Assembly: GCA_022709525.1 (NCBI GenBank)
Contig: JAKLIQ010000004.1
Location: forward strand, 9,260-73,259
DNA from: Candidatus Omnitrophota bacterium
GTDB lineage: Bacteria > Omnitrophota > Omnitrophia > Omnitrophales > Aquincolibacteriaceae
Direction: 5' to 3'
Length of the DNA stretch: 64,000 nt
The notes below the pieces were generated by a model, which ran no database searches, had not been told where the DNA came from, and saw only the letters and a program-made list of their open reading frames with translations. Each line of letters begins with the position of its first letter. The stretch's first letter is position 1. A program made the position numbers and the translations under genes. Shown here piece by piece: positions 30,193-55,098 of this stretch.

Positions 30193-30266
30193 GGGCAGTT
30201 AGTTCAGTTGGTTAGAACGCTTCCTTGACATGGAAGAGGTCAGAGGTTCGACTCCTCTACTGCCCA
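30193..30266 (+). tRNA. tRNA-Val (anticodon GAC); no encoded CCA
   Basis: Acceptor GGGCAGT/ACTGCCC, D-arm, anticodon stem CTTCC/GGAAG with loop TTGACAT, and T-arm AGAGG-TTCGACT-CCTCT. Confidence 0.9.
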
Positions 30267-33891: not shown

Positions 33892-33899
33892 GCTATGCA

Positions 33900-33950
33900 C
33901 CCTGTACACACCCGGTGTGTACAGGGTGCCACACCCGGTGTGTACAGGGT
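33900..33950. repeat. REP element: a full 27-nt palindrome CCCTGTACACACCCGGTGTGTACAGGG (33900-33926) plus an adjacent truncated copy (33928-33950)
   Basis: Perfect 11-bp arms around a CCCGG core. The same sequence recurs at five or more other intergenic sites in this window. Confidence 0.9.
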
Positions 33951-36984: not shown

Positions 36985-36991
36985 CTTGGGA

Positions 36992-37050
36992 CCCTGTACA
37001 CACCGGGTGTGTACAGGGTTTTGTAATGTACACACCCGGTGTGTACAGGG
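36992..37050. repeat. REP doublet: a full palindrome (36992-37018, CCGGG core, so opposite orientation to the copy at 33900) plus a truncated copy (37027-37050)
   Basis: Same 27-mer family as at 33900. Confidence 0.9.
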
Positions 37051-37059
37051 TGAGGGCAA

Positions 37060-38479: not shown

Positions 38480-38680
38480 GCCTAAGTGTGCCTTTTTGGC
38501 TCAAATTACTATATTAATTGATAGTAATTGATATATATATTTATAAAATATAGCTATATAAAATATATTAAAATATATTGAGTTTCAATATTGACAAATG
38601 ATTATGCATGGGCTAGGGTTTTGTTGGGAAGTAATAGAAGTGGTTTTTGAAATAATAAAATTTCAAGCATAGGAGACAGA
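38480..38680 (+). promoter_or_regulatory. Strongly AT-rich (roughly 20-25% GC) intergenic block containing TTGACA at about 38594 and multiple (AT)n / A-tract runs. It is the likely promoter/regulatory region and the left border of a compositional island.
   Basis: TAATTGATATATATATTTATAAAATATAGCTATATAAAATATATTAAAATATATTGAGTTTCAATATTGACAAATG, against a ~57% GC background. Confidence 0.5.
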
Positions 38681-38683
38681 GAA

Positions 38684-38857
38684 ATGACACATGACCTATA
38701 CGCGATTCGAAGCGCCAAACTGAACGGAAGAGGCGGCCCTCTTGCGCTCTGCGTGATGCACCACGGCGATCTGCTTTCGGGGTATATCTCGCCCAAGATC
38801 CATCGGGGGTTCCGCCGGGCCGAACGCTTCAGAAAGAGGAAGATGCGCTATGAATAA
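38684..38857 (+). CDS. Possible small leader ORF (57 aa) overlapping the start of the STAS-PilZ gene by 8 nt
   Basis: RBS AGGAGACAGAGAA plus ATG. It is GC-rich coding-like sequence, with no homology recognised. Confidence 0.3.
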   Translation: MTHDLYAIRSAKLNGRGGPLALCVMHHGDLLSGYISPKIHRGFRRAERFRKRKMRYE

Positions 38858-39766: not shown

Positions 39767-42700
39767 ATGCATAAGGGCCTTAGGGCGGTCTCAATAGCCA
39801 CCTTGGTGTGCTTTTTGACGACGCAGTGTGCCTGGGGCGCTCCCGGGGCTTCCATCGAATTAGCTGGGGCGCGCGAGTTGCCCGGCTATCTAAGCATCGA
39901 TGTTCCGGCCGAATTCGGGACCGTTGATGCGCTCTACGAAGCTCCTTCTTCCGCCAACCCTCAATTCGTCCTTCATATCCAGAACGCCCACGCGAATTAT
40001 CAGGCCCAGATGAAGATCAAGCAGCTGCTGGGCTACATGAATAAAAAATACGGCTTCAAAACTATTTTCGTGGAAGGCGCCTCCGAAAAACTCGATCCGG
40101 ATTATCTGCGTCTTTTCCCCGACGAAGAACGCAACCTCAAGCTTTGCGATGAGCTCGCCAAACAGGGAGAGCTTACCGGCGCGGAACTTTATCTGATGGA
40201 GGCGGACAAAGATATCGAAGCGCTCGGCATCGAACAAGCCGCGCTTTATAGATCGAATTATGAAGCGCTCAAAAAAGTATTCGGCGCTGAAGCCGATGTG
40301 AATCGATTTTTCAAAGGGTTTGACGGAAAACTCGACCGCATTGCTTCAAAAACCTTTACGCCCGAAACCCGCGAACTGATCGCGGATTGGAAGCGATTCG
40401 AGCAGGGCCGCCGGGAATTCATGCCGTTTGTCAAATCTCTCGCCCAGAAATCCAAGAAGATCCTGAACGTCGATCTTGAAAGCCTCTTTGCGCAAGTTGG
40501 CTGGCCGCAGATCACGCGCCTGTTGGTGGTCCAGCAGATGGAAAAAGAGCTGGACCGGGCCAAAGGTGTCGCCGAAAAAGAGACGCTTCTTAAAGCCCTT
40601 CGCGAGAAGGGGGCTTCCAAAGAGCTTATCGCGGCGGTCGAGAATTTCAGCGAAGGCTCCATCAGCGTCGGAAAGTCCACGCAGGAAGTTTCGCCGCGCG
40701 AGGTGCTCGAGCGGCTTGCTTCGGAAATGGGCCCCAAAGGCTTTAAATTCAGCGATTATCCCGCGTTCAGTCTTTATGCCGGTTACGTGACCCTCCGTTT
40801 CGAGCTCGATGCAAAAGTCCTCTTCGAAGAGATCGAATACCTTTTTACGCAGATACTCGATACTCTGGCGACAGAGCCTCAGCAAAAAACGCTTTTGGCT
40901 CTTTACCGGGATGGCGAGCTTTTGCGTAAATTGCTCCATCTTGAACTCAACCGGACGCAGTGGCGTGAAGTATCCACGGCTCAGGACCGGATCGCGGTTC
41001 CGTCACTTGTTGCACGCCTCAAAGCGGCGGTGCAGACCACAGACCGCAGACCACAGACTACTGACCAAAGCAAAAAAGATTCTGAGCTCCAGTCTCCAGT
41101 CTCCAGTCTCCAGTCTGTTGGCGATGTCATGCCTCCCGCATTCGCCAAAAAAATGGGTGAGATCTTTAACGCCGGAATCGAGTTCTATGGGTTTGCCCGT
41201 CAGCGCGAAAGTGTTTTCTATAAAGAGATGCAGACGGCGATGAGCGAGCGGAGGATCACGAAAGCCGTTCTTATCACCGGCGGTTTCCACACCGACGGCA
41301 TGAGCGACCTTTTCCGTGAGAACGCCGTCAGTTACGGCATCGTCACCCCGCGTCTTTCCGAAAGATCCAACGAAGGCCTCTATCGCCGCATTATGTTCCA
41401 GGATGAACATGTGCCTTTTAATCTGTCTTATTTAGAAGCGGCTCCTCATTTAGCCGACCTTGCCACGATTGAAAATCAGGGCCTTGTTCCGCTAGATAGT
41501 CTCAAGCCGATTCTTAAACAATTTATCGATGTCGGAAATTTCGGAAATCTTAACGAAGCTGCTATCGCAGCGTTTAATGCCATTACTACCGGTCCAAGAT
41601 ATAACGGCGTCAAAGTCACGCTCGAGCTGCGAGGGGATTATGTCAAAGTGAATGTCGTGGAAAAAGCGATCGAAGGTGGCGTTGCAATTGAATTCGGGTC
41701 GATGGCCCAAATGGCAACTCCGGAAGTTGCTGTTGCAAGGCAAGTGGCGCCTACTACACGTGCTTCTTCGCTCTGGAATTCATTGATGATCGGTTTGAGC
41801 TTATTTCTCGCAGCTCTCAATGGGTATGCGCAGGATGCCGGAGAATTTGTGGAATCATTTCTTTTGAATGGCCGGCCAGCGGCTCTTTATATTGTTAATA
41901 ATGATTACACCGGTGTTGAGAAAACGACGAATTTCTATAAATCCTGGGTAGCGACAACCCCAAAAACTTTAATGAAGGGCGATGCTGCCGTAGCGCTTGT
42001 TGAAGGAAATGGAATACGTTTAGGTTCAACCGGAGAGGTGGCTGTTGCAAGCGCCAAAACATCTGAGCCCGGATCTGACACGCAGAAGATGACGGCGCCC
42101 CTTGTGACCGAAACGGCGCTTTCTACGATTGAGATTGATACTACGCAAATTCCTGACTATATCGCAAATGAGATAGTTGGGAGGACCGGGAGCAACGTTG
42201 TTCAAATTTTTGACCCGAAGACAGGATCTTTTACGCCAGTCGCATTAACTCCTAAGTCTAGAGGCAAGAGAGGTCGCTCCGAGCTAAGAAAGATCATCCC
42301 CGTTGTGATCGCTGCTGCGCTTACCGCTAGCGCAGTTTTGGCTCAAGAATTAGCCAAAACTGCCACAGCAAAAGAAACGCAAAAGAAAGAATTTGTAGCC
42401 CCAGAAGTTAAAGAGCAGCCGATTCCCGTTGCTGCTGACGGAACGGTTAAGGTTCCTCAAGATCCAGAAAAAAATACGGATTATTATTTTATAGTGGGTG
42501 ATACCAAATTTGTTTTGTATTTAAATGATCCCAAACAGATCATCATTCATCCGGAAAGCGCCCCGGAAGATAATATGGGCTTTCCATACGAAAGCATTCG
42601 CATTTCAAAAAAGGATGTCGTAGGTTTAAAAGTTTCAACTGATGTAAGAACCGGACATCTTTTTGGTATTGGAAATGGGACCTTTAATATCGTTGTTCCC

Positions 42701-45700
42701 CTTTTAACCGATGGAACGACAGGTAGGCCCAAGGAAGCTCCCGCAACACGTCGTAAATTTGGAAGCGGCTATGCCGCTGCTAGGATGACGATGTTTCAGA
42801 CTTTGTTTTTGGTCGGGCTAATTAATTTCATGTCGGCAATAACAGTCAAAGCCCAAGATGCCGGAGAGTTTTTGGAGACTTTTCTTATGAATGGTAAGCC
42901 GAGAGCTGCTTTTATAGTCAATAGAGATTACACTCGCGTTGAATCAACTACGAACTACGTCTCATGGCAGGGCCAAACTCCTAATTATCCTTTGATGGCG
43001 GGGCAAGGCGGAGTTGTGCCTATCTCGGGAAATGCAATACGTTTGGCTTCAACCAGTGAGGTAGCAGCTGCAAAGTCGGCATCTCGACTTGCTACCGATT
43101 CAACTTCAAAAGCGATATTTGATCCCACTCGAGTTCCTGCCGACATCAGAGATAAATTTCTTGGAGCTGGCGCAACCGTTGTGCAAATTTTTGATGAAAA
43201 CACCGGAACATTTACGCCGATATCCTTGGTTCCAGTAGCCCCTGAAGAAGCAGCTGCTCCGGAAGCTGCCACGGCAGAGCCCGGCCTTGAAACACCCGTA
43301 GAGCCGGTCGGAATGGATGCCGAAAGGATTAGCACAGCTATTGATGAGATGGCTGTAGAAGAAATGCCTAGCAATATTACTTTGTCCGCCGAAGGCGATG
43401 CTTTAAGCGTTAATGTGTCTGTCCCCACTTCGGATTTTGGAAATCCTGTGATCCGGCCGCTACTGATTTCGCCGGTGCTTGCATTTGCCGCTTATGAAGG
43501 CGCGCTTTACGTGGTAGAGAGAAACGGGGTTTTTGACAAGTTTACTTCAGAAAACGTTTTGGTCGAACCTGTCAGCGAAGAGACGCCCATTACAGATGGA
43601 CGCTTTCAAATTCCTTTCGAAGAACTTCCTGAAGATCTTCAAAAGGAATGGTCCGGTTTTCGCTCCGAGGCGCGAGATGAAATTTCTCAATTAATCAAAG
43701 ATTCTGAAGCTTTCTTGGATTCGGAAGAGATAGAATCTCTTTTAGAACTTTGGGTCGAAACGGGTGACATCAGCAAGGTGTTAGAGTCATTACAAAAAAT
43801 GAAAGAAGATCCTGTGCCAGCCGTAACAAGTTTTGTGCCTATTTTGGCGGGGGTGGCGGGGAGTCTGGTCGCGGCCTTCATGTTGTTCCATCTTATATTT
43901 TCTGGTGCAATGCTTCATTCTGCTATATCAAGTCTAGGAACCACCGGACCAATAATGTTTGTTGGCGTGACGTCGATATTTGCAGGAGTGTGGCTGGGGG
44001 CAAAAGCCGCCGTAGAAACAATGGATAATAATACTCAGATCAGGGAACTAAGTGAAAAAATCCGGGAAACGCATCGCTTCGAAAAAGATGTCCCATTCGC
44101 GAATCTTAAACCGATATCCGGGGATACTCGTGAGATATTGAGAGATAAGCTAAACAAAATCAATGTGGTTATACGCGAACTTCTTGAAAAATATGAATCA
44201 AGGGATAATCTTCCAGAGGTTGAACGTCAATCCGTTTTGCCGGAATTGGCGCAAGCCCGAAACATTCACACTTCGATCTTGGAAGCTCTCAGCCGCTCCG
44301 AGGCGAGGGAATTGCCGGAAGAAACGCGGTCGCAGGTAACGCAAGGGTTAAAAGAACGTTCGCGAAGCACTGTCTTATATGTAACCCAAGCATGGCTAAA
44401 TGCTTCACAAGGGTTAGTGGAGTTTCTTCGAAGCACTGCGCAGTATACGGTTCGGGGCCCATGGGTCGTGATGTCTGTGTTGGCTGTTCTCGGCGCCGTC
44501 TTTATAGGCCCCGCATTTTTACTGATGGCGCTTCCCGTCTTGGTAGCAAGTATGTTGGCTCCGATTGCCGATCGTCTAACGCCTCAGCGAGCGCCTGCCG
44601 TCGTTCTCGATGAAGGGAATACCGTGCCGGCAACAACCTTTGCTCAGCTGGGATCGGCGGCCCAGACTATTATGCAGCCCATTTTTGGGTCAATGGCCAG
44701 GATGCCGGAGATCGTTGCAAGCCGAGAAGCTGTATGGAACGCGGTTAGCCGGCTTTATAATACGAATGAAAGGCAATATCCCTCCATCGAGGTGGTTGTG
44801 GTCAATGAAGGCATTCCTGATTTTAAGCAACAATATGCCGCAGGCCTATTTAGTGAACTAGAAAAACGCTTAGCGGAATTAGAAAACCAATCGCCGAAAA
44901 TTTACTCGATCCAATTTTTACCTGATGTCGACGGAAAAGCGTCGATCCGGGTTAACGTTTCTCCCCGCGCCGAGGCGAGATTGACCGATATGGACAAGGC
45001 CACTCTCAATATAGCGCTAGGTCGCGTTGCCACGGATAGAAACTTTAGCCGTTCTCTTCAACAAAAGGCCGGCGAATTAGCAAAAAAGCTGGATTCACCG
45101 GAGGGCATTTCAGAAGCCGAGTTAGCTGCCCAAATCGAAGGATTGCTTGCAACGATGCCGCGTGGTTTTACCTCAGATAATCAAATGCGACTACCCAACC
45201 CATGGTATGACCTGTTATCCAACGTCTTGGGCAAAATTGATCCCACAGCTACGGATCGTTTAATTCGTCCTTTTGCGATCGAACCCGGTCCGACTATGCC
45301 CGCCCTCGCCGAGGCGAGAGAGGTGCTTACAGCGGCTGATCTGCGGATGCTTTATATGAGCCGCGGCGGTGAACAGGATTATCGAGATGGAGTTGCTAAG
45401 TTTCATGATAGAGCTGATGCAGTAACGGGGCTTATTCCTCAGGGGGATACGGTTGCGGAACTTTCAAAGTTTACTGTTTACCCGGAAATGCAGTCGCTTT
45501 TCATCAACAAGATGAGATTGATTTTGGGGATGCTGCCCGGCGGCCTCGATGTTAGCGGCAGAAAGATTCTTTCGATTGGTCTCGGGGAAGGATCTTTTGA
45601 GAAAGCTATAAAAGATGAATTTCAGGCGCAGATATCAGGTTTTGAAATCTCAAAGGAGCTCGCCGCGCGCGCGCGTACAAAAGGCATCCAGGTTTCGGAA

Positions 45701-48403
45701 GAGCCCGCGGAGATCGGCATGCCAAAGTTGCCGGCCGCGTCGCAAGATGTTGTTTTGATCTCTGAGGCGATCGGATATTTGGATCTATCCGTAGTTTTCG
45801 CTGAAGCATATCGCGTTTTAAAACCGGGAGGGATGATCTTGATAGTACAATACCCCGTAACGTCCCAAAATGCGGGGAATATTTCGCCGACAGGGTTTAT
45901 TGACTACCCCTTCGACGATACGGTGACAGAAAATGGAGCAGTGGTCCAAGGGTACAAAATGGACCTAACAAACCTTCGTTTTGAGAACCCGAGTACTATC
46001 GCTCTAACAAGCCAGGAAGTTAAGAAGAAGGAGGAAGATGAAGGAATAACTTCGGATTGGTTTAAATATTTTAAGCGTGACGTTGTGGTTAATTTTCATT
46101 CTATGCAAAAGCCCGCCCGCGCCGAGGCGAGGACAGTATCCCCGCAACTGCTGGTGGTTGCGGCAAACGAGCGGCTCAGAAACGGAAATGTACCGCTTGC
46201 CGAACAAATGCCGTGGCTTACTGAGGAAGTGGGGTTTGGGAACAGATCTCAAGACCAACAGGAAGCAATATTAACTCGGATATTGTGGCTTAGAGAAAGA
46301 TCGGAGAATATCGAGAAGGTTCTTGCAAAACAGGATACGCCTCCTTCCGAAAGAGATTCTTTAACGCGTCTTTTTCAGAATTTTCAAAGCGAGCAAGTTT
46401 CCCTTGAATCCCGTCTTCCTCAGGGAGTGCTGGCCGCGCTTAATGTTGTTCGCGCCGAGGCGAGAATTCTTTCTGTAAAAGAAATTAATGAGGCAATCGA
46501 AGAGCACACGAGGAAAGTTCGCATTTTAACAATCGCTCCAAATGGGTCCAAAGTTTATACGGAGCCTTTTGAGGTTTCTTCGGCGGCAGCAGGAGCAACA
46601 GAAGGAACAAAAGACTTAATCCTATTTCGTTTAGCAAAATATGGTCGAGAGACCGGTGAAATTCGAAGTTTTCCTTCCGGAGAAATTTTGGGCATTGTGA
46701 GCGGATGGACCATGGAGACGCTGCGTGTTTATGATATTTCGCAGAAGCTTTTGTCGGAAAATCCTGAGTCGGAACTTTATATTGAAACCTACAAGCCGGT
46801 AAACGGGGGATATTTTGCAGATGTGAGATCGGGCAAGGTTAGATCGCTCGAATTTAATCCTGACAGTGGCTGGCTGACCGTTATTTGGGCCGATGGAGAT
46901 AAAAGTTTTTATCATGATACAGACCAACCTATTGCCGACACCGTGAGAACGTTGCCCTCAACGCAGGTTCCGATTCGCGCCGGGGCGAGGGGGCAAGCGA
47001 TTATCCTTGACGAGGGAAATGCCATTACACCAGAAAGTTTAAAAGTCATTTTAGAAACGGCTGGAAGCAACAATGTTACCTTATCTCAAGGACAGGTTTC
47101 TTATTCAGCGCCTGCAACCTCAGTAAGGGCGCAGTTAGATTTATTGAAGCCAAAAGGTCCTTTGACGCAAGCGGAGGTCATCAAGCTTTTGAATCTTGCT
47201 TCGGCTCGCGCGGACTTTGGAGTGGATCGGCCAAGTTCTTTTCCCGCTGATCTGAGCCCCGCAGTTTTCCAGAGGAGGGCGCCGGTCGTTCTTGATCCGG
47301 CCAACATCACTTCAGCAACGAGTTTAAAAATTGTATTAGAGGCAGCAGGAAATGCAGATGTGACATTATCTCAAGGAGAAGTGTCCTATTCGGCGCCAGC
47401 AACCTCAGTTCGGGAGCAATTGGATTTATTGGGAGCAAAAGGCCCTCTAACGCAGGAACAGATAATTAAATTATGGAATCTCGCATCGCCCCGCGCCGAG
47501 GCGAGGTCGATCGTGCAAGAGCGGCAGGATCTTGAAAAAGAGGTAGAAAATATTTTGTCTCAGGAGTATCCCGAGGAACTTCAAAAACTAAAGGAAAAAG
47601 CTTTGGAATTCGGCCTCGGGTCGCTCGATGAGGTTTTTGCGTATATTACGATACCAAGCTCTGGGGAAATGACGGCCAGGGGAGTGGTGGATAATCTGTT
47701 ACGTCTTGTTCAGGCCAAGCCGGGTGAAGTCAATTGGAAACATTTCTTCGCTGCGGCAATAGCTGCTCTTAAAGGTAATCCAATGATGGCGGTGTCCGAT
47801 ACTCCCGGCGGCACTGTGATCATGCGGGCTGCGGCGTTTGATTCAGTTGAACTTGAAAGTATGGCAACACGCCTCGAGACGAACACAGAATTAGTGGAAG
47901 GATATGTCATTCCCAGCGATGGCTCCGGGATAGATCAAGATAAGATCAGAGCCGATATTAATCGCATCAAGAACACTTTTGATCATAAGGGCCGTAAGAT
48001 CGGCGATCGTCTCAATGTTCAATTTGAAAAAGCTTCCAAGCTTTCCGAAAAGGCTCGAGCTCAAGCCGCAGCCATCAAGCGCGCGAATTCCATGAAAGAA
48101 AATTTTGCTGTGGCATTCCTGGTTGAAGAAGGTATCCAGACTACGGGTCAGTTCAACGGCACGGTTCTGCGCACCCAAGAAAAAGCAGCGAGGCAGAATG
48201 CGCCCGTGCGCAGTTGGCTTGCTTCCATGGTCGCGTTGAACGGCGTCGATCAGGTGAACCAATTGTTATTTAAACAATTGAATGACAGAAATGTTCTTAA
48301 ACCGAAAGGCGATGGGTACGAGATCGATGAAGCTTTGCTCAGTGGCCTCGCCAAGCTCTGGTCGGATATCTTGACCCAAAAAGCCACTTCAATCGCAGCA
48401 TAA
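39767..48403 (+). CDS. Giant (2878 aa) secreted/membrane multidomain protein of unknown function. It has a signal peptide, a TraB/GumN/Tiki-like N-terminal region (inference), two sets of tandem internal repeat modules, two TM clusters, and an embedded class I SAM-dependent methyltransferase domain.
   Basis: Signal peptide MHKGLRAVSIATLVCFLTTQCAWGAP. HIQNAHANY...IFVEGASE and ...LITGGFHTDG resemble the TraB/Tiki GTxH...E...GxxH motifs. Module A is at nt ~41828-42250 and ~42850-43235 (AQDAGEF..SFL.NG.P...VVQIFD..TG.FTP). Module B is at nt ~46996-47210 and ~47282-47505 (..LDEGN.ITPESLK..LE.AG...VTLSQG.VSYSAPATSVR.QLDLL...GPLTQ), with a partial copy at ~44596. TM clusters are at nt ~43815-44020 and ~44455-44580. 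MTase motifs ILSIGLGEGSFE / DVVLISEAIGYL / LKPGGMILIV are at nt ~45480-45900. GC content of the gene is lower than in neighbouring genes. Confidence 0.8.
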   Translation: MHKGLRAVSIATLVCFLTTQCAWGAPGASIELAGARELPGYLSIDVPAEFGTVDALYEAPSSANPQFVLHIQNAHANYQAQMKIKQLLGYMNKKYGFKTIFVEGASEKLDPDYLRLFPDEERNLKLCDELAKQGELTGAELYLMEADKDIEALGIEQAALYRSNYEALKKVFGAEADVNRFFKGFDGKLDRIASKTFTPETRELIADWKRFEQGRREFMPFVKSLAQKSKKILNVDLESLFAQVGWPQITRLLVVQQMEKELDRAKGVAEKETLLKALREKGASKELIAAVENFSEGSISVGKSTQEVSPREVLERLASEMGPKGFKFSDYPAFSLYAGYVTLRFELDAKVLFEEIEYLFTQILDTLATEPQQKTLLALYRDGELLRKLLHLELNRTQWREVSTAQDRIAVPSLVARLKAAVQTTDRRPQTTDQSKKDSELQSPVSSLQSVGDVMPPAFAKKMGEIFNAGIEFYGFARQRESVFYKEMQTAMSERRITKAVLITGGFHTDGMSDLFRENAVSYGIVTPRLSERSNEGLYRRIMFQDEHVPFNLSYLEAAPHLADLATIENQGLVPLDSLKPILKQFIDVGNFGNLNEAAIAAFNAITTGPRYNGVKVTLELRGDYVKVNVVEKAIEGGVAIEFGSMAQMATPEVAVARQVAPTTRASSLWNSLMIGLSLFLAALNGYAQDAGEFVESFLLNGRPAALYIVNNDYTGVEKTTNFYKSWVATTPKTLMKGDAAVALVEGNGIRLGSTGEVAVASAKTSEPGSDTQKMTAPLVTETALSTIEIDTTQIPDYIANEIVGRTGSNVVQIFDPKTGSFTPVALTPKSRGKRGRSELRKIIPVVIAAALTASAVLAQELAKTATAKETQKKEFVAPEVKEQPIPVAADGTVKVPQDPEKNTDYYFIVGDTKFVLYLNDPKQIIIHPESAPEDNMGFPYESIRISKKDVVGLKVSTDVRTGHLFGIGNGTFNIVVPLLTDGTTGRPKEAPATRRKFGSGYAAARMTMFQTLFLVGLINFMSAITVKAQDAGEFLETFLMNGKPRAAFIVNRDYTRVESTTNYVSWQGQTPNYPLMAGQGGVVPISGNAIRLASTSEVAAAKSASRLATDSTSKAIFDPTRVPADIRDKFLGAGATVVQIFDENTGTFTPISLVPVAPEEAAAPEAATAEPGLETPVEPVGMDAERISTAIDEMAVEEMPSNITLSAEGDALSVNVSVPTSDFGNPVIRPLLISPVLAFAAYEGALYVVERNGVFDKFTSENVLVEPVSEETPITDGRFQIPFEELPEDLQKEWSGFRSEARDEISQLIKDSEAFLDSEEIESLLELWVETGDISKVLESLQKMKEDPVPAVTSFVPILAGVAGSLVAAFMLFHLIFSGAMLHSAISSLGTTGPIMFVGVTSIFAGVWLGAKAAVETMDNNTQIRELSEKIRETHRFEKDVPFANLKPISGDTREILRDKLNKINVVIRELLEKYESRDNLPEVERQSVLPELAQARNIHTSILEALSRSEARELPEETRSQVTQGLKERSRSTVLYVTQAWLNASQGLVEFLRSTAQYTVRGPWVVMSVLAVLGAVFIGPAFLLMALPVLVASMLAPIADRLTPQRAPAVVLDEGNTVPATTFAQLGSAAQTIMQPIFGSMARMPEIVASREAVWNAVSRLYNTNERQYPSIEVVVVNEGIPDFKQQYAAGLFSELEKRLAELENQSPKIYSIQFLPDVDGKASIRVNVSPRAEARLTDMDKATLNIALGRVATDRNFSRSLQQKAGELAKKLDSPEGISEAELAAQIEGLLATMPRGFTSDNQMRLPNPWYDLLSNVLGKIDPTATDRLIRPFAIEPGPTMPALAEAREVLTAADLRMLYMSRGGEQDYRDGVAKFHDRADAVTGLIPQGDTVAELSKFTVYPEMQSLFINKMRLILGMLPGGLDVSGRKILSIGLGEGSFEKAIKDEFQAQISGFEISKELAARARTKGIQVSEEPAEIGMPKLPAASQDVVLISEAIGYLDLSVVFAEAYRVLKPGGMILIVQYPVTSQNAGNISPTGFIDYPFDDTVTENGAVVQGYKMDLTNLRFENPSTIALTSQEVKKKEEDEGITSDWFKYFKRDVVVNFHSMQKPARAEARTVSPQLLVVAANERLRNGNVPLAEQMPWLTEEVGFGNRSQDQQEAILTRILWLRERSENIEKVLAKQDTPPSERDSLTRLFQNFQSEQVSLESRLPQGVLAALNVVRAEARILSVKEINEAIEEHTRKVRILTIAPNGSKVYTEPFEVSSAAAGATEGTKDLILFRLAKYGRETGEIRSFPSGEILGIVSGWTMETLRVYDISQKLLSENPESELYIETYKPVNGGYFADVRSGKVRSLEFNPDSGWLTVIWADGDKSFYHDTDQPIADTVRTLPSTQVPIRAGARGQAIILDEGNAITPESLKVILETAGSNNVTLSQGQVSYSAPATSVRAQLDLLKPKGPLTQAEVIKLLNLASARADFGVDRPSSFPADLSPAVFQRRAPVVLDPANITSATSLKIVLEAAGNADVTLSQGEVSYSAPATSVREQLDLLGAKGPLTQEQIIKLWNLASPRAEARSIVQERQDLEKEVENILSQEYPEELQKLKEKALEFGLGSLDEVFAYITIPSSGEMTARGVVDNLLRLVQAKPGEVNWKHFFAAAIAALKGNPMMAVSDTPGGTVIMRAAAFDSVELESMATRLETNTELVEGYVIPSDGSGIDQDKIRADINRIKNTFDHKGRKIGDRLNVQFEKASKLSEKARAQAAAIKRANSMKENFAVAFLVEEGIQTTGQFNGTVLRTQEKAARQNAPVRSWLASMVALNGVDQVNQLLFKQLNDRNVLKPKGDGYEIDEALLSGLAKLWSDILTQKATSIAA

Positions 48404-48456: not shown

Positions 48457-48496
48457 TTAAAATCTCTCTTGTTCTCTTTCCATCTTCTGCCTCTCA

Positions 48497-48524
48497 CCCT
48501 TGTACACACCCGGTGTGTACATTG
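48497..48524. repeat. Degenerate REP copy (CCCTTGTACACACCCGGTGTGTACATTG)
   Basis: Same family as 33900, with 3 mismatches. Confidence 0.8.
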
Positions 48525-48585
48525 TCGATAAATATATAAAATATTTACTTTAAATAATAATCATGTAGACTGTCTCCGCCGATAC

Positions 48586-48611
48586 CGCGGACACACCCGG
48601 TGTGGACAGGG
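48586..48611. repeat. Degenerate REP copy (CGCGGACACACCCGGTGTGGACAGGG) immediately 5' of the RAYT gene
   Basis: Same family. Confidence 0.8.
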
Positions 48612-48630
48612 TTTGAAAGGAGGGGAGAGC

Positions 48631-49278
48631 ATGGGATATCGAAAGGTCGCGTTAAAGACCGGGTGTCTTCATCATGTTTTTTCGAGGAGCATTGCGGGAT
48701 TTGAGATTTTCCGCTTTCGTGAAGAATATCTGAGAATGATGGAGACTCTCAAATTTTATCAAGTCGACAGGAGTGGAATCCGCTTTTCGAGAAAAAGCGC
48801 CGCTGACATTCAAAATTCATCGCATCCTAAGCCGGAGTTTCCCCATGTCCGGCTTATTGCATATTGCATCATGTCTACTCATGTTCATTTTATGCTTGAA
48901 CAGGTTATGGATGACGGGATCTCGAAATTTATGCGGTTAGTTCTTAACAGCTACGCCCGATATTTTAATACGAAAAGTGGTCGAAAGGGGCCGCTCTGGG
49001 AGTCGAGATTTGAAAATCGCCTTATTGAAACGGATGAATATGCGCTTCATCTTTCTCGATATATTCATCTCAACCCAACTTCTGCGGGGCTTGTGACGCG
49101 TCCCGAGGATTGGGAATTCTCATCCTATCTCGAATATCTGGGGGAAAACTCCGGCTCCCCACTTTGTGAATTCAAAAACGTCGTTTCCCTTTCGCCGGAA
49201 CTCTATAGGAAATTCACGGAGGACCGAAGCGATTATCAACGCGCGCTGCAGATGCTCAAAGCCCATCTGATCGATTGA
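48631..49278 (+). mobile_element. REP-associated tyrosine transposase (RAYT; IS200/IS605-like HuH Y1 transposase). The longest ORF starts at 48613; ATG 48631 with RBS AGGAGGGGAG is the more likely start.
   Basis: HuH motif (MSTHVHFML), catalytic Tyr region (LSRYIHLNPTSAGLV), and about 215 aa. It is flanked on both sides by REP palindromes (48586-48611 and 49280-49306). Confidence 0.85.
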
Positions 49279-49279
49279 A

Positions 49280-49306
49280 CCCTGTACACACCGGGTGTGT
49301 ACAGGG
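49280..49306. repeat. REP element (full 27-mer, CCGGG-core orientation) immediately 3' of the RAYT gene
   Basis: CCCTGTACACACCGGGTGTGTACAGGG. Confidence 0.9.
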
Positions 49307-49329
49307 TGAAAAAGGGAAGGAGAGGGGCA

Positions 49330-49357
49330 TTGACACCCGGAGCCCGGGGAGTATAAT
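49330..49357 (+). promoter_or_regulatory. Near-consensus sigma70 promoter (TTGACA, 16-nt spacer, TATAAT)
   Basis: cATTGACAcccggagcccggggagTATAATacg. Confidence 0.6.
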
Positions 49358-49363
49358 ACGCCC

Positions 49364-49444
49364 ATGCGAGACTTACGGGTCTCGACTCACCTGCAGAGGT
49401 TCGTGGCCACCAGATCCCCACTCGGTCACGAACCTCTTTTTTTT
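49364..49444 (+). ncRNA. Candidate small RNA (~80 nt) running from the consensus promoter to an intrinsic terminator
   Basis: A 5' hairpin CGAGAC-TTACGG-GTCTCG, then a terminator GAGGTTCGTG...CACGAACCTC plus T8 at 49396-49444. No ORF. It lies between two REP copies. Confidence 0.45.
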
Positions 49445-49572
49445 CAGCCATGAGCCGTTTTTTGCGAATGGACTGATCCGCCACGCTTTATGGCGGATGC
49501 TCAAAATGAGCTTTTTATGCGAATGGACTGCATTGACTTTGGTTTGTAATTTAACGGTAGTCAAGACTGCCC

Positions 49573-49639
49573 CATCCCGCCTCTGTGACGGCGGGATGAT
49601 AAGAATTGGGACTGATCCCCGCCTACCGGCAGGCAGGCG
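49573..49639. repeat. Second repeat family, copy A: hairpin CATCCCGCCTCTG(TGAC)GGCGGGATG plus GCCTACCGGCAGGCAGGCG
   Basis: A related copy lies at 57761-57821. A TTGGGACTGATCCCCGCCTACC-like motif is also found at 57888-57907. Confidence 0.6.
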
Positions 49640-49649
49640 CCAAACAGCA

Positions 49650-49676
49650 CCCTGTACACACCCGGTGTGTACAGGG
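49650..49676. repeat. REP element (full 27-mer, CCCGG core)
   Basis: CCCTGTACACACCCGGTGTGTACAGGG. Confidence 0.9.
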
Positions 49677-49707
49677 TATATTAGACCGCAGGATGGGAGA
49701 GTGACCT

Positions 49708-50079
49708 ATGGAACCCGATAAAGACATACGATTTACCGAAAAAAAGGTCGATGAAAGCTGGAAAGAACAGGCGGAAAGCGTCAAGGCGAAAGCCGCCCCG
49801 CCGCCGTCCGCGGCTGGCGCCAAACCCAAAACGGTCGAAACTTCGAAAGCGTTTTTAAATCTTGTCCAGTCTCTTGGGTATCAGGCGCTGATGCATTTGG
49901 GCGAGATCCCGGATCCCATGACGCAGCAGCGTGAGGTCAATACCGACGCCGCAAAAGAAACGATCGATCTTCTGGCCATGCTCCGCGATAAAACCCAGGG
50001 CAACCTGAGCGATGAAGAGAAGAAGATCCTCGAAACGCTCCTGGCCCAACTGCAGATCAAATTTTCCCAAAGCGTATGA
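49708..50079 (+). CDS. DUF1844-family protein
   Basis: ...FLNLVQSLGYQALMHLGEIPDPMTQQREVNTDAAKETIDLLAMLRDKTQGNLSDEEKKILE... matches the DUF1844 pattern. Confidence 0.6.
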   Translation: MEPDKDIRFTEKKVDESWKEQAESVKAKAAPPPSAAGAKPKTVETSKAFLNLVQSLGYQALMHLGEIPDPMTQQREVNTDAAKETIDLLAMLRDKTQGNLSDEEKKILETLLAQLQIKFSQSV

Positions 50080-51074
50080 GCGCCCTCGGCAAGCATAAGG
50101 GGAAGATCCTCCGGTTCGCCATCAGTTTTGCCGCGATCGGGGTTATTGTCTATGTCATGCGGGATAAGATCCATGATTCCATGGCGATCCTTCGCCACGA
50201 GGTCTTGTGGGGCTGGTTCGCTCTCGCGGCCGCGGGGTATTTCGCCGGGCTCGCGATCCTGGCCGTCCGGCTCCAGTGGGTCTTCCGTGTCCAGAATATC
50301 CACATGAGCTTTCGCGAGTCCTTCCATCTCGGCGTTGTGGGGCTTTTTTATAATCTGATGCTGCCCTCCGCGGTGGGCGGGGATGTCGCCAAGGCGTTTT
50401 ACGCTTACAAGTATTCAGGCAAGAAGATCGAATCGGCAACCTCGATCCTCTTGGACCGCTTGATGGGCTTTGTCGCCCTCATCATTATGGCCGTGATCGG
50501 GCTGGTTTACTTCAGCAAAGAGGCCTCGAACGCCTATATTGATTACGCCGTCTACGGAGCGCTGGGCGTCCTCCTGTTTTGCATCGCTTTTTTCTCAAGC
50601 CGCCGCTTTGCCCGGCTTTTTAAGGGGTTCGCCCGCCTGATCCCGAGCGAGAAATGGAAGGCGCGCCTCGCGGAGATCTACCACGCGATCTACGGTTACC
50701 GGCATCATCACGGCCCCGTCCTGATGGCAGTCCTTCTTTCTTTTGCCGGCCAAGCGCTTTTCATCTCCGTCAACTACTGGCTGACCTTGAGTTTGTCGGC
50801 CGGTATCGATTACTGGAAATTTTTTATCTTGATACCCGTTATCTCCATCGTTAGTATGGCACCTTCCATCGGCGGCCTCGGCGTCCGGGAAGGTTGTATC
50901 CTGCTTCTTTTCGGGCGCTATTTGCCTCCGGAACGGGCCGGCGCGCTGATGATCCTGATGTTCATCATGACCTACGCCTTCAGCATCGGCGCCGGTATCT
51001 GGTACGCGTTCCGGGGCGGCCTTAAGCCCAAAGCCCTCAACGAAATGGAAATGATGCAATCCCCAAAGGGATAG
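50076..51074 (+). CDS. UPF0104 / lysylphosphatidylglycerol-synthase-TM-like (flippase-like) membrane protein
   Basis: About 8 TM helices, with GGDVAKAFY and PSIGGLGVREG motifs. Confidence 0.6.
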   Translation: MSALGKHKGKILRFAISFAAIGVIVYVMRDKIHDSMAILRHEVLWGWFALAAAGYFAGLAILAVRLQWVFRVQNIHMSFRESFHLGVVGLFYNLMLPSAVGGDVAKAFYAYKYSGKKIESATSILLDRLMGFVALIIMAVIGLVYFSKEASNAYIDYAVYGALGVLLFCIAFFSSRRFARLFKGFARLIPSEKWKARLAEIYHAIYGYRHHHGPVLMAVLLSFAGQALFISVNYWLTLSLSAGIDYWKFFILIPVISIVSMAPSIGGLGVREGCILLLFGRYLPPERAGALMILMFIMTYAFSIGAGIWYAFRGGLKPKALNEMEMMQSPKG

Positions 51075-51103
51075 TTTAAAATAACGGCGGAGAACATGTT
51101 TTT

Positions 51104-51583
51104 ATGATGAAGATCCTCGTGATCCATGGCCCGAACTTGCAGCTCCTGGGGGAGCGGGAAGTTTCGGTCTACGGCAAAGTGACCCTGAAACAGATCAACG
51201 CGGCCCTGGAAAAGGAAGCGAAAACGCTCGGCGTCGCGCTTGCGATCGAGCAAAGCAACCATGAGGGCGCGATCGTTGACCGTGTCGGAAATGCGCGCGA
51301 GAGTTTTGACGCGATCCTGATCAATCCCGCCGCCTACACCCACACGAGCGTTGCCATCCGGGACGCTTTAGCCGCTTGCGGCCTTCCCGCCGTCGAAGTC
51401 CACTTAAGCCACATTTACCGCCGCGAGGATTTCCGCCAGCATTCCATGACCGCCCCGGCATGCGTTGCCCAGGTAACGGGGTTCGGCAAAGACAGTTATC
51501 TTCTGGGCCTGCGCGGCCTCGTCGCCTACGCATCTCAAATGAAACCCAAGAAAAAAACATCCGCCGTGAGGAAAAGAAAATGA
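51104..51583 (+). CDS. aroQ: 3-dehydroquinate dehydratase, type II
   Basis: [21 protein letters not shown] ... [16 protein letters not shown] ... EVHLSHI. Confidence 0.9.
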
Positions 51584-52047
51584 ACATCAAAGAGATCCGC
51601 GAACTTTTAGAATTGATGGCCGAGCACAATCTCGGAGAGATCGAGGTCGAAAAAGACGACATGAAGATCAAGCTTCGCAAGCTCGCGAACGGCCGCATCA
51701 TGGTCGAGGGCGCGCCGCAGATGGCCGCGCCGGCCCCGGCGGCCATGCCGGCTTCGGCTCCAGCGGCTGCCGCGGCTCCCGCCGGACAACCCGCCGTCGA
51801 GGAGGGTGTGACGATCGTCCGCTCGCCGATGGTCGGGACCTTTTATGCCGCGCCGGCGCCGGACCAGCCGCCTTATGTGACGGTTGGGAAGGTCATCAAG
51901 GAAGGCGACGTCCTCTGCATCATCGAAGCCATGAAGCTCATGAATGAGATCAAGGCGGAGTTGGGCGGCACGGTGATCGAGGTCATGGTCCAGAACGGCC
52001 AGACCGTCGAATACGATCAGCCGATCTTCAAGATCAAAAAATCCTGA
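51580..52047 (+). CDS. accB: Acetyl-CoA carboxylase biotin carboxyl carrier protein
   Basis: C-terminal biotinyl domain with the EAMKLMNEI motif, and an Ala/Pro linker. The ATG overlaps the aroQ stop. Confidence 0.9.
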
Positions 52048-52087
52048 TCCCGGCATTCAACCCCTAACGACTTAAACGGAAAAAATC

Positions 52088-53473
52088 ATGTTCTCAAAAG
52101 TCCTTATTGCAAATCGAGGCGAGATCGCGGTACGCATCATTCGCGCCTGCCACGAACTGGGCATCAAGACCGTGGCGGTCTTCTCCAAGGCCGATCGCGA
52201 GTCGCTCCATGTTAAATTGTCCGATGACGCCATTTGTATCGGGGAATCCCCAAGCGCTGAAAGTTATCTGAATATCCCGGCGCTTATTTCGGCCGCCGAG
52301 ATCGCGGATGTCGAAGCGATCCATCCCGGTTACGGGTTCCTGGCCGAGAATGCGCACTTTGCCGAGATCTGCGAATCCTGCCAGATCAAATTCATCGGCC
52401 CCAGGCCCGAAAGCATCCGGCTCGCGGGCGATAAATCCGTCGCGCGGCTTGAAATGAAAAAAGCCGGCGTTCCCATCATTCCAGGGAGCAAGGGCACGAT
52501 CAAGGACCAGGAAGAAGCGTTGAAGCTCGCCAAAAAACTCGGCTACCCCGTGATCATCAAAGCGTCCGCCGGCGGCGGCGGGAAGGGCATCAAGATCGCC
52601 CATAATGACGGCAAGCTTATCAGCGCTTTTCTCACGGCCCAAACCGAGGCCGAAGCCGCGTTCGGGAACGGCGAGGTCTATATCGAAAAATATATCGAAG
52701 AGCCGCGCCATATCGAAGTCCAGATCATGGCCGACAGCTTCGGAAACATCGTCCATTTGGGCGAACGCGACTGTTCGGTCCAGCGCCGCCATCAAAAACT
52801 GATCGAAGAATCGCCGGCCCCGGGTGTGAGCGCCAAGCTCCGGCGCAAGATCGGCGAGGCCGCGACCCGCGCCGCCAAAGCGTTCAAATACGAGAACGCC
52901 GGCACGATCGAATTCCTTCTCGACAAGAACGATGATTTTTATTTTATGGAAATGAATACGCGCCTTCAGGTCGAACATCCCGTGACGGAAATGGTAACGG
53001 GGCTCGACCTTGTCAAAGAACAGCTTCGTGTCGCGGCGGGCGAGAAATTGAGTTTTACTCAGGAACAAGTGGAGATCACAGGGCACGCGATCGAATGCCG
53101 CATCAATGCCGAAGACCCGGATAATAATTTTATGCCGTCTCCCGGAAAGATCGAAGTGTGGCGCATGCCCGGCGGCCCCAATGTCCGGCTGGACAGCCAT
53201 GTTTACACGGGATATTCCATCCCTCCTTTTTATGACTCCATGATCGCCAAGCTGATCGCTTACGGCAAAAACCGCCAGGACGCGATCACGGTCATGCTCC
53301 GGGCGCTTCGCGAGATCGAAGTAAAGCCCGTGAAAACCACGGCGCCTCTTCACACGCGCATTTTAAGCCACCCGCGTTTCCGGCAGGGCGGGGTCAACAC
53401 GAATTTTATCGAATCGACCATTTTCGGGACCGGAAAAGTGGAAGAGCCGGGAGCCGGTAAAGAGAAGAAATGA
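52088..53473 (+). CDS. accC: Acetyl-CoA carboxylase biotin carboxylase
   Basis: ATP-grasp fold and biotin carboxylase motifs ([24 protein letters not shown]). Confidence 0.95.
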
Positions 53474-54036
53474 AGGTCGCCTCCGCATTCGCCCAGCTTT
53501 TTGCGATCCTTGCTTTTTTGACGCTGGGCAGTTTGATGATCATCGTTTCGCTTCATCTTCTGGCGTTCGATGACGCGATCCTGAAGGTTCAGGAGATCTA
53601 TCAGAGCTCTTGGCGTTCGGGCCAGGTCGGAGTCGTAGGACTGATCTTTATCGGGCTCGGCCTCGCGTTCGCCAAGATGCTCGTCAAGTCGGGCCGGCCG
53701 AATGAAGCGATCATTTTTCAAAGCGAGGTAGGGCCGATGGTGGTGTCGGCGGCGACGCTCGGGAACGCGGCCGCGAAAGCGATCAAACATTTTCCGCTCG
53801 TCAAGGGCGTGAAGGTCAAAGTCAATATCATCGGCAAGAACGTCGAGATCAAGCTCCGGCTCGCGCTTTGGGCCGGCGGCCACGTACCGACGGTCTTGTC
53901 GGAATTGCAGCAGGAAGTCCAGCAGCGCGTCAAACGTCTGCTCGGGGCCGAAAACCAGCTTACGGTGATCTGCGACGTGAAAGAGATCGACGAAGCAGGA
54001 ACAGGCCTTCAGGATTTCGGAAACTTAAGAAAATAA
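53470..54036 (+). CDS. Asp23/Gls24-like envelope stress protein with an N-terminal TM anchor
   Basis: TM N-terminus, and ...[21 protein letters not shown]...[10 protein letters not shown] resembles Asp23. Confidence 0.45.
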
Positions 54037-54069
54037 CGCAATCTTAACTTGAAGAAGGAGAATATAGAA

Positions 54070-55098
54070 ATGAAGCGTATTGGTATGTTGACGGGTGGCG
54101 GGGATTGTCCGGGTCTTAACGCGGTATTGCGCGCGATCGTAAGAACCGCAAAACTGGAGCATTGGGCTTGCCTCGGTTTCAAACGCGGCTGGAAGGGGAT
54201 GATCCAGAACGATTTTGAAGAGTTGACGCTCGCTTCGGTGTCCGGGATCCTGCCGCGCGGCGGAACGATCCTGGAAACTTCGAGGACGAATCCTTGCAAA
54301 AAAGAAGAGGACATGCAGAAAGTCCGCGAGACCATTAAAAAGAACAAGCTCGATGCGTTGATCGCGATCGGCGGCGAGGATACCCTTGGGGCCGCCAACA
54401 AGCTTTTCAAGGAGGGGCTGCCGATCATCGGGGTTCCTAAAACGATCGATAATGACCTGAACGCGACCGATTATACCTTTGGTTATGATACGGCGCTCAA
54501 TATCGCCACCGAATGCATCGACCGCCTCCATACAACGGCAGAATCGCACGAGCGCGTGATGGTGGTCGAGATCATGGGACGCCACGCAGGATGGATCGCG
54601 CTTGAATCCGGGATCGCCGGAGGCGCGGATGTGATCCTCATTCCGGAAGTGGCGGTCACGGCGGATGAGATCTGCGATCACATCGTGGCTCGCCACAAAC
54701 GGGGAAAACATTTCAGCATCGTGGCTGTTGCCGAGGGTTTTTCCATCAAGGGCGAAGACCTTGTGACGGCCACTAAAGAGCTTGATGCGTTCGGGCATGT
54801 ATTGCTCGGCGGCGTCGGAGATCGGTTAGCGAAGCTGATCGAGAAGAAGACGGGTTATGAAACCCGCTGCACGGTGCTCGGCCATATCCAGCGCGGTGGT
54901 TCACCTACGGCGTTCGATCGCGTCCTTGGAACTCGTTTTGGCGTGAAGGCCGTCGAGCTCGTGAAGTTGAACAAATTCGGTTATATGGTCGCCCTTAAAG
55001 GGCGGGACATCGTGGAAGTGCCGCTTGCCGACGCGGTGGGGGCGTTGAAGACGGTCCCAATGGACATGTACGAACTCACCAAGATCTTTGCGGGTTAG
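54070..55098 (+). CDS. pfkA: 6-phosphofructokinase (PfkA family; the GGED variant of the GGDG/GGDD motif leaves phosphoryl-donor specificity unresolved)
   Basis: GMLTGGGDCPGLNA ... IGGEDTLG ... PKTIDNDL. RBS GAAGGAG precedes ATG 54070. Confidence 0.85.
   Translation: MKRIGMLTGGGDCPGLNAVLRAIVRTAKLEHWACLGFKRGWKGMIQNDFEELTLASVSGILPRGGTILETSRTNPCKKEEDMQKVRETIKKNKLDALIAIGGEDTLGAANKLFKEGLPIIGVPKTIDNDLNATDYTFGYDTALNIATECIDRLHTTAESHERVMVVEIMGRHAGWIALESGIAGGADVILIPEVAVTADEICDHIVARHKRGKHFSIVAVAEGFSIKGEDLVTATKELDAFGHVLLGGVGDRLAKLIEKKTGYETRCTVLGHIQRGGSPTAFDRVLGTRFGVKAVELVKLNKFGYMVALKGRDIVEVPLADAVGALKTVPMDMYELTKIFAG

Follow-up and report, generated by a model that had tools for sequence, protein, structure and literature searches.

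A conserved 81-nt RNA ahead of the DUF1844-accBC operon in Candidatus Omnitrophota: a candidate terminating 5' leader

Introduction

A stretch of 64,000 nucleotides (nt) from a Candidatus Omnitrophota bacterium (GenBank assembly GCA_022709525.1, contig JAKLIQ010000004.1, positions 9,260 to 73,259 of the forward strand; hereafter, the window) carries, between a RAYT gene and a gene for a DUF1844 protein, a consensus promoter followed by about 80 nt with two hairpins and a run of T residues. The question raised by this locus is what kind of RNA it specifies, and which genes that RNA serves. A first-pass annotation, made from the sequence alone, had offered an independent small RNA (sRNA), a RAYT-associated regulatory RNA, or a toxin-antitoxin-like RNA as possibilities. 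After comparison with homologous loci we favor, with moderate confidence, another answer, that the ~80-nt RNA is a terminating 5' leader (attenuator) of the DUF1844-accBC operon, and that it would also release an abundant ~80-nt RNA.

The Omnitrophota are an uncultivated phylum of ultra-small, host-dependent bacteria (PMC10066038). The genome survey of this phylum annotated RNAs by Rfam only, and describes no element of this kind (PMC10066038); our literature searches found no description of a regulatory RNA in the phylum. The RNA precedes genes whose products catalyze the first committed step in fatty-acid synthesis, and the tuning of bacterial accBC is still poorly understood (PMC11602165).

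Results

Promoter and predicted transcription start

The first-pass annotation had placed a TTGACA-16 nt-TATAAT promoter at 49330-49357, and this placement was correct. The promoter scanner scored the site at 12 of 12 against the sigma-70 consensus, and when both strands of the window were searched for exact matches to TTGACA-N16-18-TATAAT, this was the single site found, with none in 100 dinucleotide shuffles. The promoter is also conserved among relatives. All of 61 distinct homologous upstream regions (see below for their retrieval) scored at least 9/12, and 48 of them at least 11/12. The hexamer TTGACA was found in 54 of the 61, its distance to the RNA being fixed, and a TATAAT-like -10 element with 16-18 nt spacing, often reading TGnTATAAA, was present in every one. 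Across the same set, the end of the -10 element lies 8-12 nt from the first helix of the RNA (P1). The bases between the -10 element and position 49364, the start predicted from promoter geometry, vary among relatives, and conservation sets in at 49364 (CATGCGAG...). The A-tract at 49309-49313 is a possible UP-like element, and close relatives carry a similar GAAAAAAG block at the same offset.

Anatomy and fold of the RNA

The stretch of ~80 nt that had been described as starting about 7 nt past the promoter corresponds to a predicted 81-nt RNA, the limits of conservation being the predicted start and the end of the U tract. Its minimum free energy (MFE) was -33.6 kcal/mol, compared to -18.7 ± 2.95 kcal/mol for shuffled sequences (z = -5.0), and none of 200 shuffles was as stable. 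The 5' hairpin of the first-pass annotation, CGAGAC-TTACGG-GTCTCG, is present at the place given for it, with P1 arms at 49367-49372 and 49379-49384 around the loop TTACGG. It is followed by an unpaired C-rich linker (C-box 1) and a variable tail of 2-6 nt (49392-49394 in the window), and the unpaired stretch reads ACUCACCUGC. The arms of the second hairpin, at 49395-49408 and 49424-49437, are AGAGGTTCGTGGCC and GGTCACGAACCTCT in the DNA, or AGAGGUUCGUGGCC and GGUCACGAACCUCU in the RNA. Both this hairpin and the T8 run proposed for it are real, but the stem contains 14 bp, rather than the 10 bp originally assigned. In sequence it has what is expected of an intrinsic terminator, namely a stable, G+C-rich hairpin followed directly by a U run, and a simple terminator scanner, which allows loops of at most 8 nt, missed it because its loop is 15 nt long. 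A second C-rich box (C-box 2) lies in this loop, and both C-boxes are without a pairing partner inside the RNA. No tandem repeats were reported by TRF in the interval 49250-49750, and there were no direct repeats inside the RNA. The features of the locus are collected in Table 1.

Table 1. Coordinates of the RNA, its promoter and the neighboring features, in window positions.
Feature	Position	Strand	Basis or remark
-35 hexamer TTGACA	49330-49335	+	12/12 promoter consensus match
-10 hexamer TATAAT	49352-49357	+	16-nt spacer to -35 hexamer
Predicted transcription start (A)	49364 ± 1-2 nt	+	Promoter geometry, 7 nt past -10
A-tract, ~51-55 nt upstream of predicted start	49309-49313	+	Read from sequence
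P1, 5'-terminal hairpin CGAGAC-UUACGG-GUCUCG	49367-49384	+	MFE fold, covariation
C-box 1, unpaired linker ACUCACC	49385-49391	+	Unpaired in MFE and consensus folds
Terminator hairpin, 14-bp stem and 15-nt loop	49395-49437	+	MFE fold, covariation
C-box 2, UCCCCACU, 3' side of terminator loop	49415-49422	+	Conserved in protein-anchored relatives and alignment
U8 tract, predicted 3' end of short RNA	49437-49444	+	Read from sequence
DUF1844 gene, first downstream of RNA	49708-50079	+	Pfam PF08899, 1.4e-26
Rest of cluster: flippase-like (TIGR00374), aroQ, accB, accC, amaP, pfk	50076-55098	+	Same order and strand in relatives
Variable spacer with two or three GCGAAYGGACTG(ATCC)+hairpin modules	49445-49646	+	Outside conserved RNA
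REP palindrome between leader and first gene	49647-49677	+	Family D1; most relatives have none here
RAYT gene	48613-49278		NCBIfam REP_Tyr_transpos, 64 bits, below 80-bit cutoff
REP copies	33897-33950, 36989-37051, 48495-48612, 49277-49307, 49647-49677		

Homologues and their distribution

The DUF1844 protein of the window was used to fetch loci from species-representative genomes, and close matches were all found in Candidatus Omnitrophota metagenome-assembled genomes (MAGs). Among the loci obtained in this way (all loci are numbered with the prefix L), blastn and nhmmer placed the RNA just upstream of DUF1844 in L007-L010, L012-L025, and L028. In addition, the RNA-only pattern ACTCACC-N2-6-AGAGGTTC-N8-20-CCCCAC was scanned over JGI metagenomes, and returned 68 loci, of which about 60 are true. 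Eight matches (L057, L064, L079, L084, L097, L101, L109, and L114) were rejected as chance occurrences of the pattern, without promoter and terminator anatomy. The true metagenome and genome loci comprise 56 distinct sequences, or 39 distinct RNAs when counted from P1 onward, and overall about 60 distinct homologous loci are present in Candidatus Omnitrophota MAGs and metagenomes. A covariance model of the RNA (R1) detected one copy in the window, with a score of 92.4 bits, and neither a second copy in the window nor an orphan copy among the homologous loci. Two distant forms received weak scores from R1 at the correct place (33.9 bits for L026 and 29.2 bits for L027); both retain the promoter, the hairpin GAGGUUC...GAACCUC with its U tract, and the position before DUF1844. 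No such RNA was found at 27 more distant DUF1844 loci, from other Omnitrophota, Planctomycetes and others, and in many of these DUF1844 comes directly after another gene. The RNA belongs to one large clade of Candidatus Omnitrophota.

The Rfam search that the first-pass annotation had recommended indicates that this is not a known family. At gathering thresholds, Rfam 15 returned only two tRNAs in the whole window, and at E <= 10 the only match in a 551-nt region around the RNA was STnc390, at 20.8 bits (gathering score 50) and in the terminator part alone. No Rfam match fell at the RNA in eight divergent homologous loci, and ARAGORN found no tRNA or tmRNA at the RNA locus. In one relative (L072, positions 1052-1139), a sub-threshold match to the Francisella sRNA FtrB (33.3 bits, gathering score 66, E = 0.029) lies ~200 nt upstream of the RNA promoter, and is probably due to chance. 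A likeness to tRNA-Val(GAC), encoded at 30193-30266, was also noted, as its T-arm UCAGAGGUUCGACUCCUCU shares CAGAGGUUCG with the terminator 5' arm (49393-49402), and UCGACUC with the junction of P1 and linker (49381-49388). This likeness is probably a chance one as well, because the UUC takes part in a helix of the RNA and there is no conservation at positions 57/58.

Covariation of both helices

Covariation was measured on a model-guided alignment of 41 distinct rows. Standard pairs made up 97.3% of the alignment cells, and 13 of the 21 pairs showed changes on both sides, so that the covariation the first-pass annotation had suggested looking for is strong in both helices. None of 500 shuffles reached any of the five measures, and when pairing partners were slid by 1-3 columns as a control, only 35-53% of cells remained paired. 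In P1, six of the seven pairs are compensatory, 94.6% of cells are paired, and G-U wobbles are tolerated; covariation that accepts such wobbles argues for pairing in RNA, rather than for a DNA operator palindrome. The terminator stem is paired in 98.6% of cells and has seven covarying pairs. Its inner 6-7 pairs covary heavily (one is CG in 14, UA in 13 and GC in 9), and its base, GAGGUUC/GAACCUC, is invariant even in the distant L026 and L027. A run of at least five U residues follows the stem in every homologue, and similarity ends there. Mutual information revealed the known helices plus phylogenetic signal only, with no tertiary or pseudoknot pair; an association between alignment columns 31 and 79 was considered as a tertiary pair, and was discarded because it failed to hold in register.

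Sequence conservation of the RNA

The sequence itself is nearly invariant among close relatives. Averaged over 15 loci of the close clade, identity of the 81-nt RNA to that of the window is 99.3%. For DUF1844 in these loci, identity is 79% at the amino-acid level, 75% at the nucleotide level and 51% when only third codon positions are counted, and for the promoter spacer it is 44%. Identity across relatives runs from CATGCGAG at the predicted start to U8, and no further. C-box 2 is conserved in the protein-anchored loci L007-L025 and L028. C-box 1 is part of the pattern used for the metagenome scan, and its invariance in that set is therefore by construction; it is also kept in L024, L025, and L028, which were found by protein and whose DUF1844 is 42-57% identical. 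That even the stems are invariant, in lineages with saturated synonymous sites, may be a sign that the free RNA has a function.

The RNA and the downstream operon

In every RNA locus with enough downstream sequence (82 of 82, duplicates included), the next gene is DUF1844, on the same strand, and three further loci are cut by a contig end before a downstream gene is reached. In the cluster that follows, accB encodes BCCP, accC biotin carboxylase, and pfk phosphofructokinase. Between the U tract and the start codon of DUF1844 there are 11 to 351 nt, with a median of 46 nt and 263 nt in the window. This spacing is 25 nt or less in 19 of 58 distinct loci (11 nt in L094, 13 nt in L056, and 16 nt in L058). 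A sigma-70 promoter cannot fit into so short a spacing, and in those species the operon must therefore be transcribed from the upstream promoter, through the terminator. Given the fixed linkage to the operon and the lack of promoter space, the RNA is best called the operon's terminating 5' leader. The first-pass annotation had named membership in a longer mRNA or untranslated region as the outcome that would speak against its candidate sRNA, and this is largely what the fixed linkage and the frequent absence of promoter space indicate. Of the independent sRNA it proposed, the discrete, structured, non-coding unit with its own promoter and terminator stands, but independence is doubtful, as the unit is always tied to the DUF1844-accBC operon. 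A released ~80-nt RNA may nonetheless have a function of its own. One relative that lacks the RNA, L032, has a promoter-like TTGACT-16-TAGACT sequence directly before the DUF1844 start, which fits the view of that position as the operon's promoter site.

No relatives of DUF1844 were found by sequence in PDB, NCBIfam has no name for it, and a literature search returned nothing relevant to its function. The AlphaFold model (pLDDT 75.6) consists of a disordered, conserved N-terminal peptide and a three-helix bundle. Foldseek found no PDB entry similar to this model at E <= 0.001, the best being an entry for a tubulin-cofactor complex at E = 0.72, and PADLOC returned no defense or toxin match. DUF1844 is widespread without the RNA. 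Its linkage with aroQ, accB, and accC (49708-53473 in the window) is also seen in RNA-less Omnitrophota and in Planctomycetes MAGs (L029-L053), and in RNA-less loci DUF1844 often directly follows an open reading frame (ORF) ending in ...VVGYAGIII. The wide linkage hints that DUF1844 may have a role connected with an ancient aroQ-acc cluster.

Metagenome and Logan contigs often begin or end inside the RNA or at its edge (L020/L106 and L105 at their starts, L103 at its end, and also L108, L124, and L126). Breaks at this position would be expected if co-occurring species share the identical 81 nt. One Logan contig, L124, has its first base 1 nt ahead of the predicted transcription start, crosses the terminator and reaches aroQ. 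This start would be informative if the run were a metatranscriptome, but sister contigs break elsewhere within the RNA, and we did not count L124 as evidence of a transcript.

Coding readings of the region

The first-pass annotation had stated that the region holds no ORF. Mechanically this is not so, as the region is crossed by a 29-codon ORF starting with ATG (49364-49453), a 148-aa ORF starting with TTG (49275-49721), and two minus-strand ORFs. None is conserved, however, and the non-coding assignment stands. We give practically no credence to the idea that a small protein is made here, either from the leaderless 29-aa ORF or from the 148-aa ORF, even though the ATG of the former coincides with the predicted transcription start and the latter was annotated by a public gene caller (as 2568-3014 of L001). 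The ATG at 49364 is replaced by ATT or TTG, or is gone, in relatives, indels in loop length shift the frame, and the stop codon lies past the terminator. The non-conserved start and the frame-breaking indels rule out a leader peptide or small protein gene. The 148-aa ORF has no Pfam or PADLOC match, and spans a REP palindrome, the promoter, the RNA and a spacer that elsewhere measures 11-351 nt; this gene call is evidently spurious.

Upstream neighbors and the spacer

The window contains eight copies of a ~30-nt REP palindrome, ACCCTGTACACACCSGGTGTGTACAGGGT (family D1), and the RAYT gene is flanked by two degenerate copies and a good one. As the first-pass annotation had observed, REP copies bracket the RNA, at 49277-49307 and 49647-49677. 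The RNA sequence is not itself a member of family D1. The gene upstream of the RNA varies among relatives, and includes a giant surface protein as well as ORFs that by eye are DnaK-, HflX-, CorC-, RarA-, and PilZ-like. A RAYT homologue lies upstream in only a few relatives (L012, L019/L071, L023/L074, and L085). These homologues are 52-70% identical and found at the same offset, ~760 nt upstream of the RNA, in otherwise divergent genomes, which suggests that an old RAYT gene may have been inherited vertically at this spot and lost repeatedly.

The REP palindrome between the RNA and DUF1844 is a secondary insertion. The modules of the spacer, at 49464-49640, consist of GCGAAYGGACTG(ATCC) and, after it, a hairpin (for example GATCCGCCA-N7-TGGCGGAT). 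Varying numbers of related modules are found at the corresponding intergenic position of L007, L008, L010, L012, L015, L016, L017, and L021, and a similar CCGCCA...TGGCGGAT hairpin precedes DUF1844 in the RNA-less L032. The 263-nt spacer of the window is a secondary expansion of an insertion-prone 5' untranslated region, filled by these modules and the REP.

Directly upstream of this region, a 2,878-aa ORF (39767-48403) has matches to methyltransferase domains, and poorly conserved homologues of it (27-66% identity) are located upstream of the RNA in several relatives. Large ORFs have been reported for Omnitrophota (PMC10066038), and this one fits that description. A very AT-rich, imperfect palindrome (ATATATATATTTATAAAATATAGCTATAT...) is found between genes at 38531-38576, before the ORF at 38850.

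Discussion

Comparison of many lineages indicates that the element is real, functional and previously undescribed, and that it represents a new RNA family of a kind that is already known, a terminating leader of an operon, from which a small RNA is probably released as well. The following sequence of events can be proposed. The near-consensus sigma-70 promoter would fire at ~49364, and the nascent RNA would fold P1 at its very 5' end, which should protect that end. The 14-bp hairpin and U8 would then end most transcripts at ~49444, releasing an abundant ~80-nt RNA, and polymerases that read through the terminator would make the operon mRNA. C-boxes ACUCACC and UCCCCACU, having no internal partner, are the best candidates for contact with a trans-acting factor, and may form the surface through which such a factor sets the fraction of read-through. 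Candidates for this factor are a small ligand, a G-rich RNA and a protein, the last perhaps encoded by the operon itself (for example DUF1844 or BCCP). Sequence and comparison show the promoter, both helices, a terminator-like anatomy, the limits of conservation and the obligatory linkage to an operon with no space for another promoter; actual termination, regulated rather than fixed read-through and the kind of regulator are inferences.

Several observations weigh against this reading. The pattern used for the metagenome scan is itself partly responsible for the invariance of the C-boxes among the loci it returned, and the distant L026 and L027 are without C-rich boxes. The stems, too, are invariant across lineages in which synonymous sites are saturated, which goes beyond ordinary leaders. 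When the alignment was cut before the 3' arm of the terminator, RNAalifold predicted P1 only, and no conserved antiterminator. Pairing between the P1 3' arm and the terminator 5' arm is possible everywhere, but is weak (-2 to -11.5 kcal/mol) and without covariation support. Because no conserved competing fold was found, regulated attenuation is a conjecture. Loci with long spacers could also hold a secondary promoter, and in the window there are weak 9/12 matches at 49653-49682.

The alternative to which we give most weight is a trans-acting sRNA, with the ~80-nt terminated RNA as the functional product. The C-boxes would then be seeds that pair with G-rich Shine-Dalgarno regions, and transcription of DUF1844 would be a by-product of read-through, or a means of co-expression with the operon. 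The layout is typical of base-pairing sRNAs (a 5' hairpin, a conserved single-stranded box, and a terminator with a U tail), the limits of conservation are those of the transcript, and a near-consensus promoter of its own combined with a strong terminator would be sensible if the short RNA were wanted in bulk. Identity of 99.3%, stems included, is also easier to explain if a free RNA contacts conserved partners, and UCACCU is similar to the sequence conserved at the 3' end of bacterial 16S rRNA. Nevertheless, the RNA is linked to one gene in all 82 loci, and many of the spacings leave no place for a promoter serving that gene alone, as is characteristic of a cis-acting element. Orphan or duplicate copies were not seen. 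When the RNA was compared by RNAduplex with 50 translation-initiation regions of the window, pairing was at background (best -20.2 kcal/mol, 1% quantile -19.1 kcal/mol), exact anti-box heptamers were not enriched, and there was no match to RsaE or any Rfam sRNA. In L026 and L027, moreover, the C-boxes are missing, although promoter, terminator and location ahead of DUF1844 are all retained. We consider such a trans-acting sRNA rather unlikely, yet a serious rival, with the proviso that trans-acting and leader roles are not mutually exclusive.

Alternatively, expression of accB-accC and of the membrane-lipid genes linked to them could be controlled through direct sensing by the leader, which would be a terminator-embedded riboswitch or would bind a product of the operon, for instance apo-BCCP. 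The signal would then be a metabolite of the fatty-acid or biotin pathway, or the carrier protein itself; we regard this idea as improbable. To our knowledge, no RNA sensor for the acetyl-CoA carboxylase pathway has been described. In its riboswitch form, to which we attach equally little weight, an aptamer of the HMP-PP (thiS) style would control acetyl-CoA carboxylase in response to a ligand that is perhaps biotin, acetyl- or malonyl-CoA, or an acyl carrier. The RNA is compact (81 nt), conserved unpaired nucleotides flank covarying stems, and two of the four features by which thiS was flagged are shared, an abnormally conserved terminator loop and association with an exclusive set of genes (PMC6478431). 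However, we detected no alternative aptamer configuration supported by covariation, the boxes are short, C-rich and linear rather than arranged in the junctions and internal loops usual for aptamers, and the stems are invariant in the close clade, unlike those of typical riboswitches. No Rfam riboswitch was matched, and a ligand cannot be deduced from the first two operon genes, which are without assigned function. A passive element, in which the operon simply depends on the promoter, and the hairpins serve as a 5' stabilizer and a fixed "governor" terminator, with nothing sensed and a short RNA devoid of function, appears to us just as doubtful as a riboswitch. It would be consistent with the lack of a competing structure, with tolerance of the REP and hairpin-module insertions downstream, and with the fact that a 5'-terminal hairpin is a known design for stabilizing mRNA. 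A fixed hairpin requires only pairing, though, whereas here substitutions have saturated synonymous sites but left the unpaired linker, the loop and all stem bases unchanged; a weaker promoter would also be a simpler solution than a 12/12 consensus plus a strong terminator kept in 61 lineages. Very improbable is the remaining suggestion, that the RNA is associated with RAYT and REP or belongs to a toxin-antitoxin-like pair. It draws on the position of the RNA between REP copies, 52 nt after the RAYT stop codon in the window, on the RAYT homologues at the same offset in the few relatives named above, and on the order of promoter, short RNA, terminator and protein, which is like that of type III toxin-antitoxin loci. 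In most relatives the RNA is found with no RAYT or REP close by and beside unrelated upstream genes, and the RNA is not a REP. There are no tandem repeats, and DUF1844, modeled as a three-helix bundle, has neither a PADLOC match nor a nuclease-like fold match, is common without the RNA and resides in a housekeeping operon. Accordingly, neither the RAYT-associated RNA nor the toxin-antitoxin-like RNA of the first-pass annotation is retained.

The terminating leader that we prefer adds a structured RNA family to the Omnitrophota on clean evidence, namely a conserved promoter, covarying helices and sharp limits of conservation. The 81 nt are nearly frozen despite saturated synonymous sites, a degree of constraint expected of tRNA or rRNA and not of an ordinary leader, and this suggests that the RNA may contact a conserved partner. 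There are practical uses as well, since the covariance model is ready for annotating Omnitrophota genomes, and the RNA both explains the 148-aa gene call and marks a site at which metagenome assemblies tend to break.

Among known systems, the order of parts is that of the lambda PR'-tR' "6S" transcript and of ToxIN, where a strong promoter gives a short, terminated RNA and the genes are expressed by read-through. The logic is shared too, in that the terminator determines how much short RNA is made relative to downstream mRNA, although the Omnitrophota locus is without RNA repeats, a toxin-like protein, or any sign of a dedicated antiterminator. RsaE/RoxS of Firmicutes is likewise short, with its own strong promoter, a Rho-independent terminator, and repeated, unpaired C-rich motifs that pair with Shine-Dalgarno sequences. 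The Omnitrophota RNA shares with it the C-rich motifs, which are unpaired in linker and hairpin loop, the strong promoter, the terminator and the very high conservation. It differs in belonging to another phylum, in having no Rfam match to RsaE/RoxS at E <= 10, in being inseparable from one operon, and in that no targets were found in the window. Many ribosomal-protein leaders of Firmicutes also resemble it, as structured 5' leaders that end in a terminator.

A parallel in architecture is offered by the HMP-PP (thiS motif) riboswitch, whose aptamer is embedded in what looks like an ordinary terminator, notable for its abnormally conserved loop and for its restriction to one set of genes (Atilho et al. 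2019, PMC6478431). Conservation of a terminator loop is unusual (cf. PMC6478431). Both RNAs are compact 5' leaders dominated by the terminator fold, with a conserved loop and an exclusive set of downstream genes. The Omnitrophota RNA has in addition a 5' hairpin and a conserved single-stranded box, stands before DUF1844 and acetyl-CoA carboxylase genes rather than in a thiamin context, has no match in Rfam 15, and showed no alternative aptamer fold. The genes themselves offer a parallel in E. coli accBC, for which AccB has been proposed to autoregulate transcription, without having a DNA-binding motif (PMC11602165); carboxyltransferase has also been reported to bind its own mRNAs, a report that is contested (PMC11602165). 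The E. coli mechanism is unsolved and no related RNA has been described there, and in the Omnitrophota operon DUF1844 is the first gene. In both cases, however, a regulatory layer would lie between the promoter and accB-accC, and autoregulation by subunits of acetyl-CoA carboxylase provides a precedent for a protein as the trans-acting factor.

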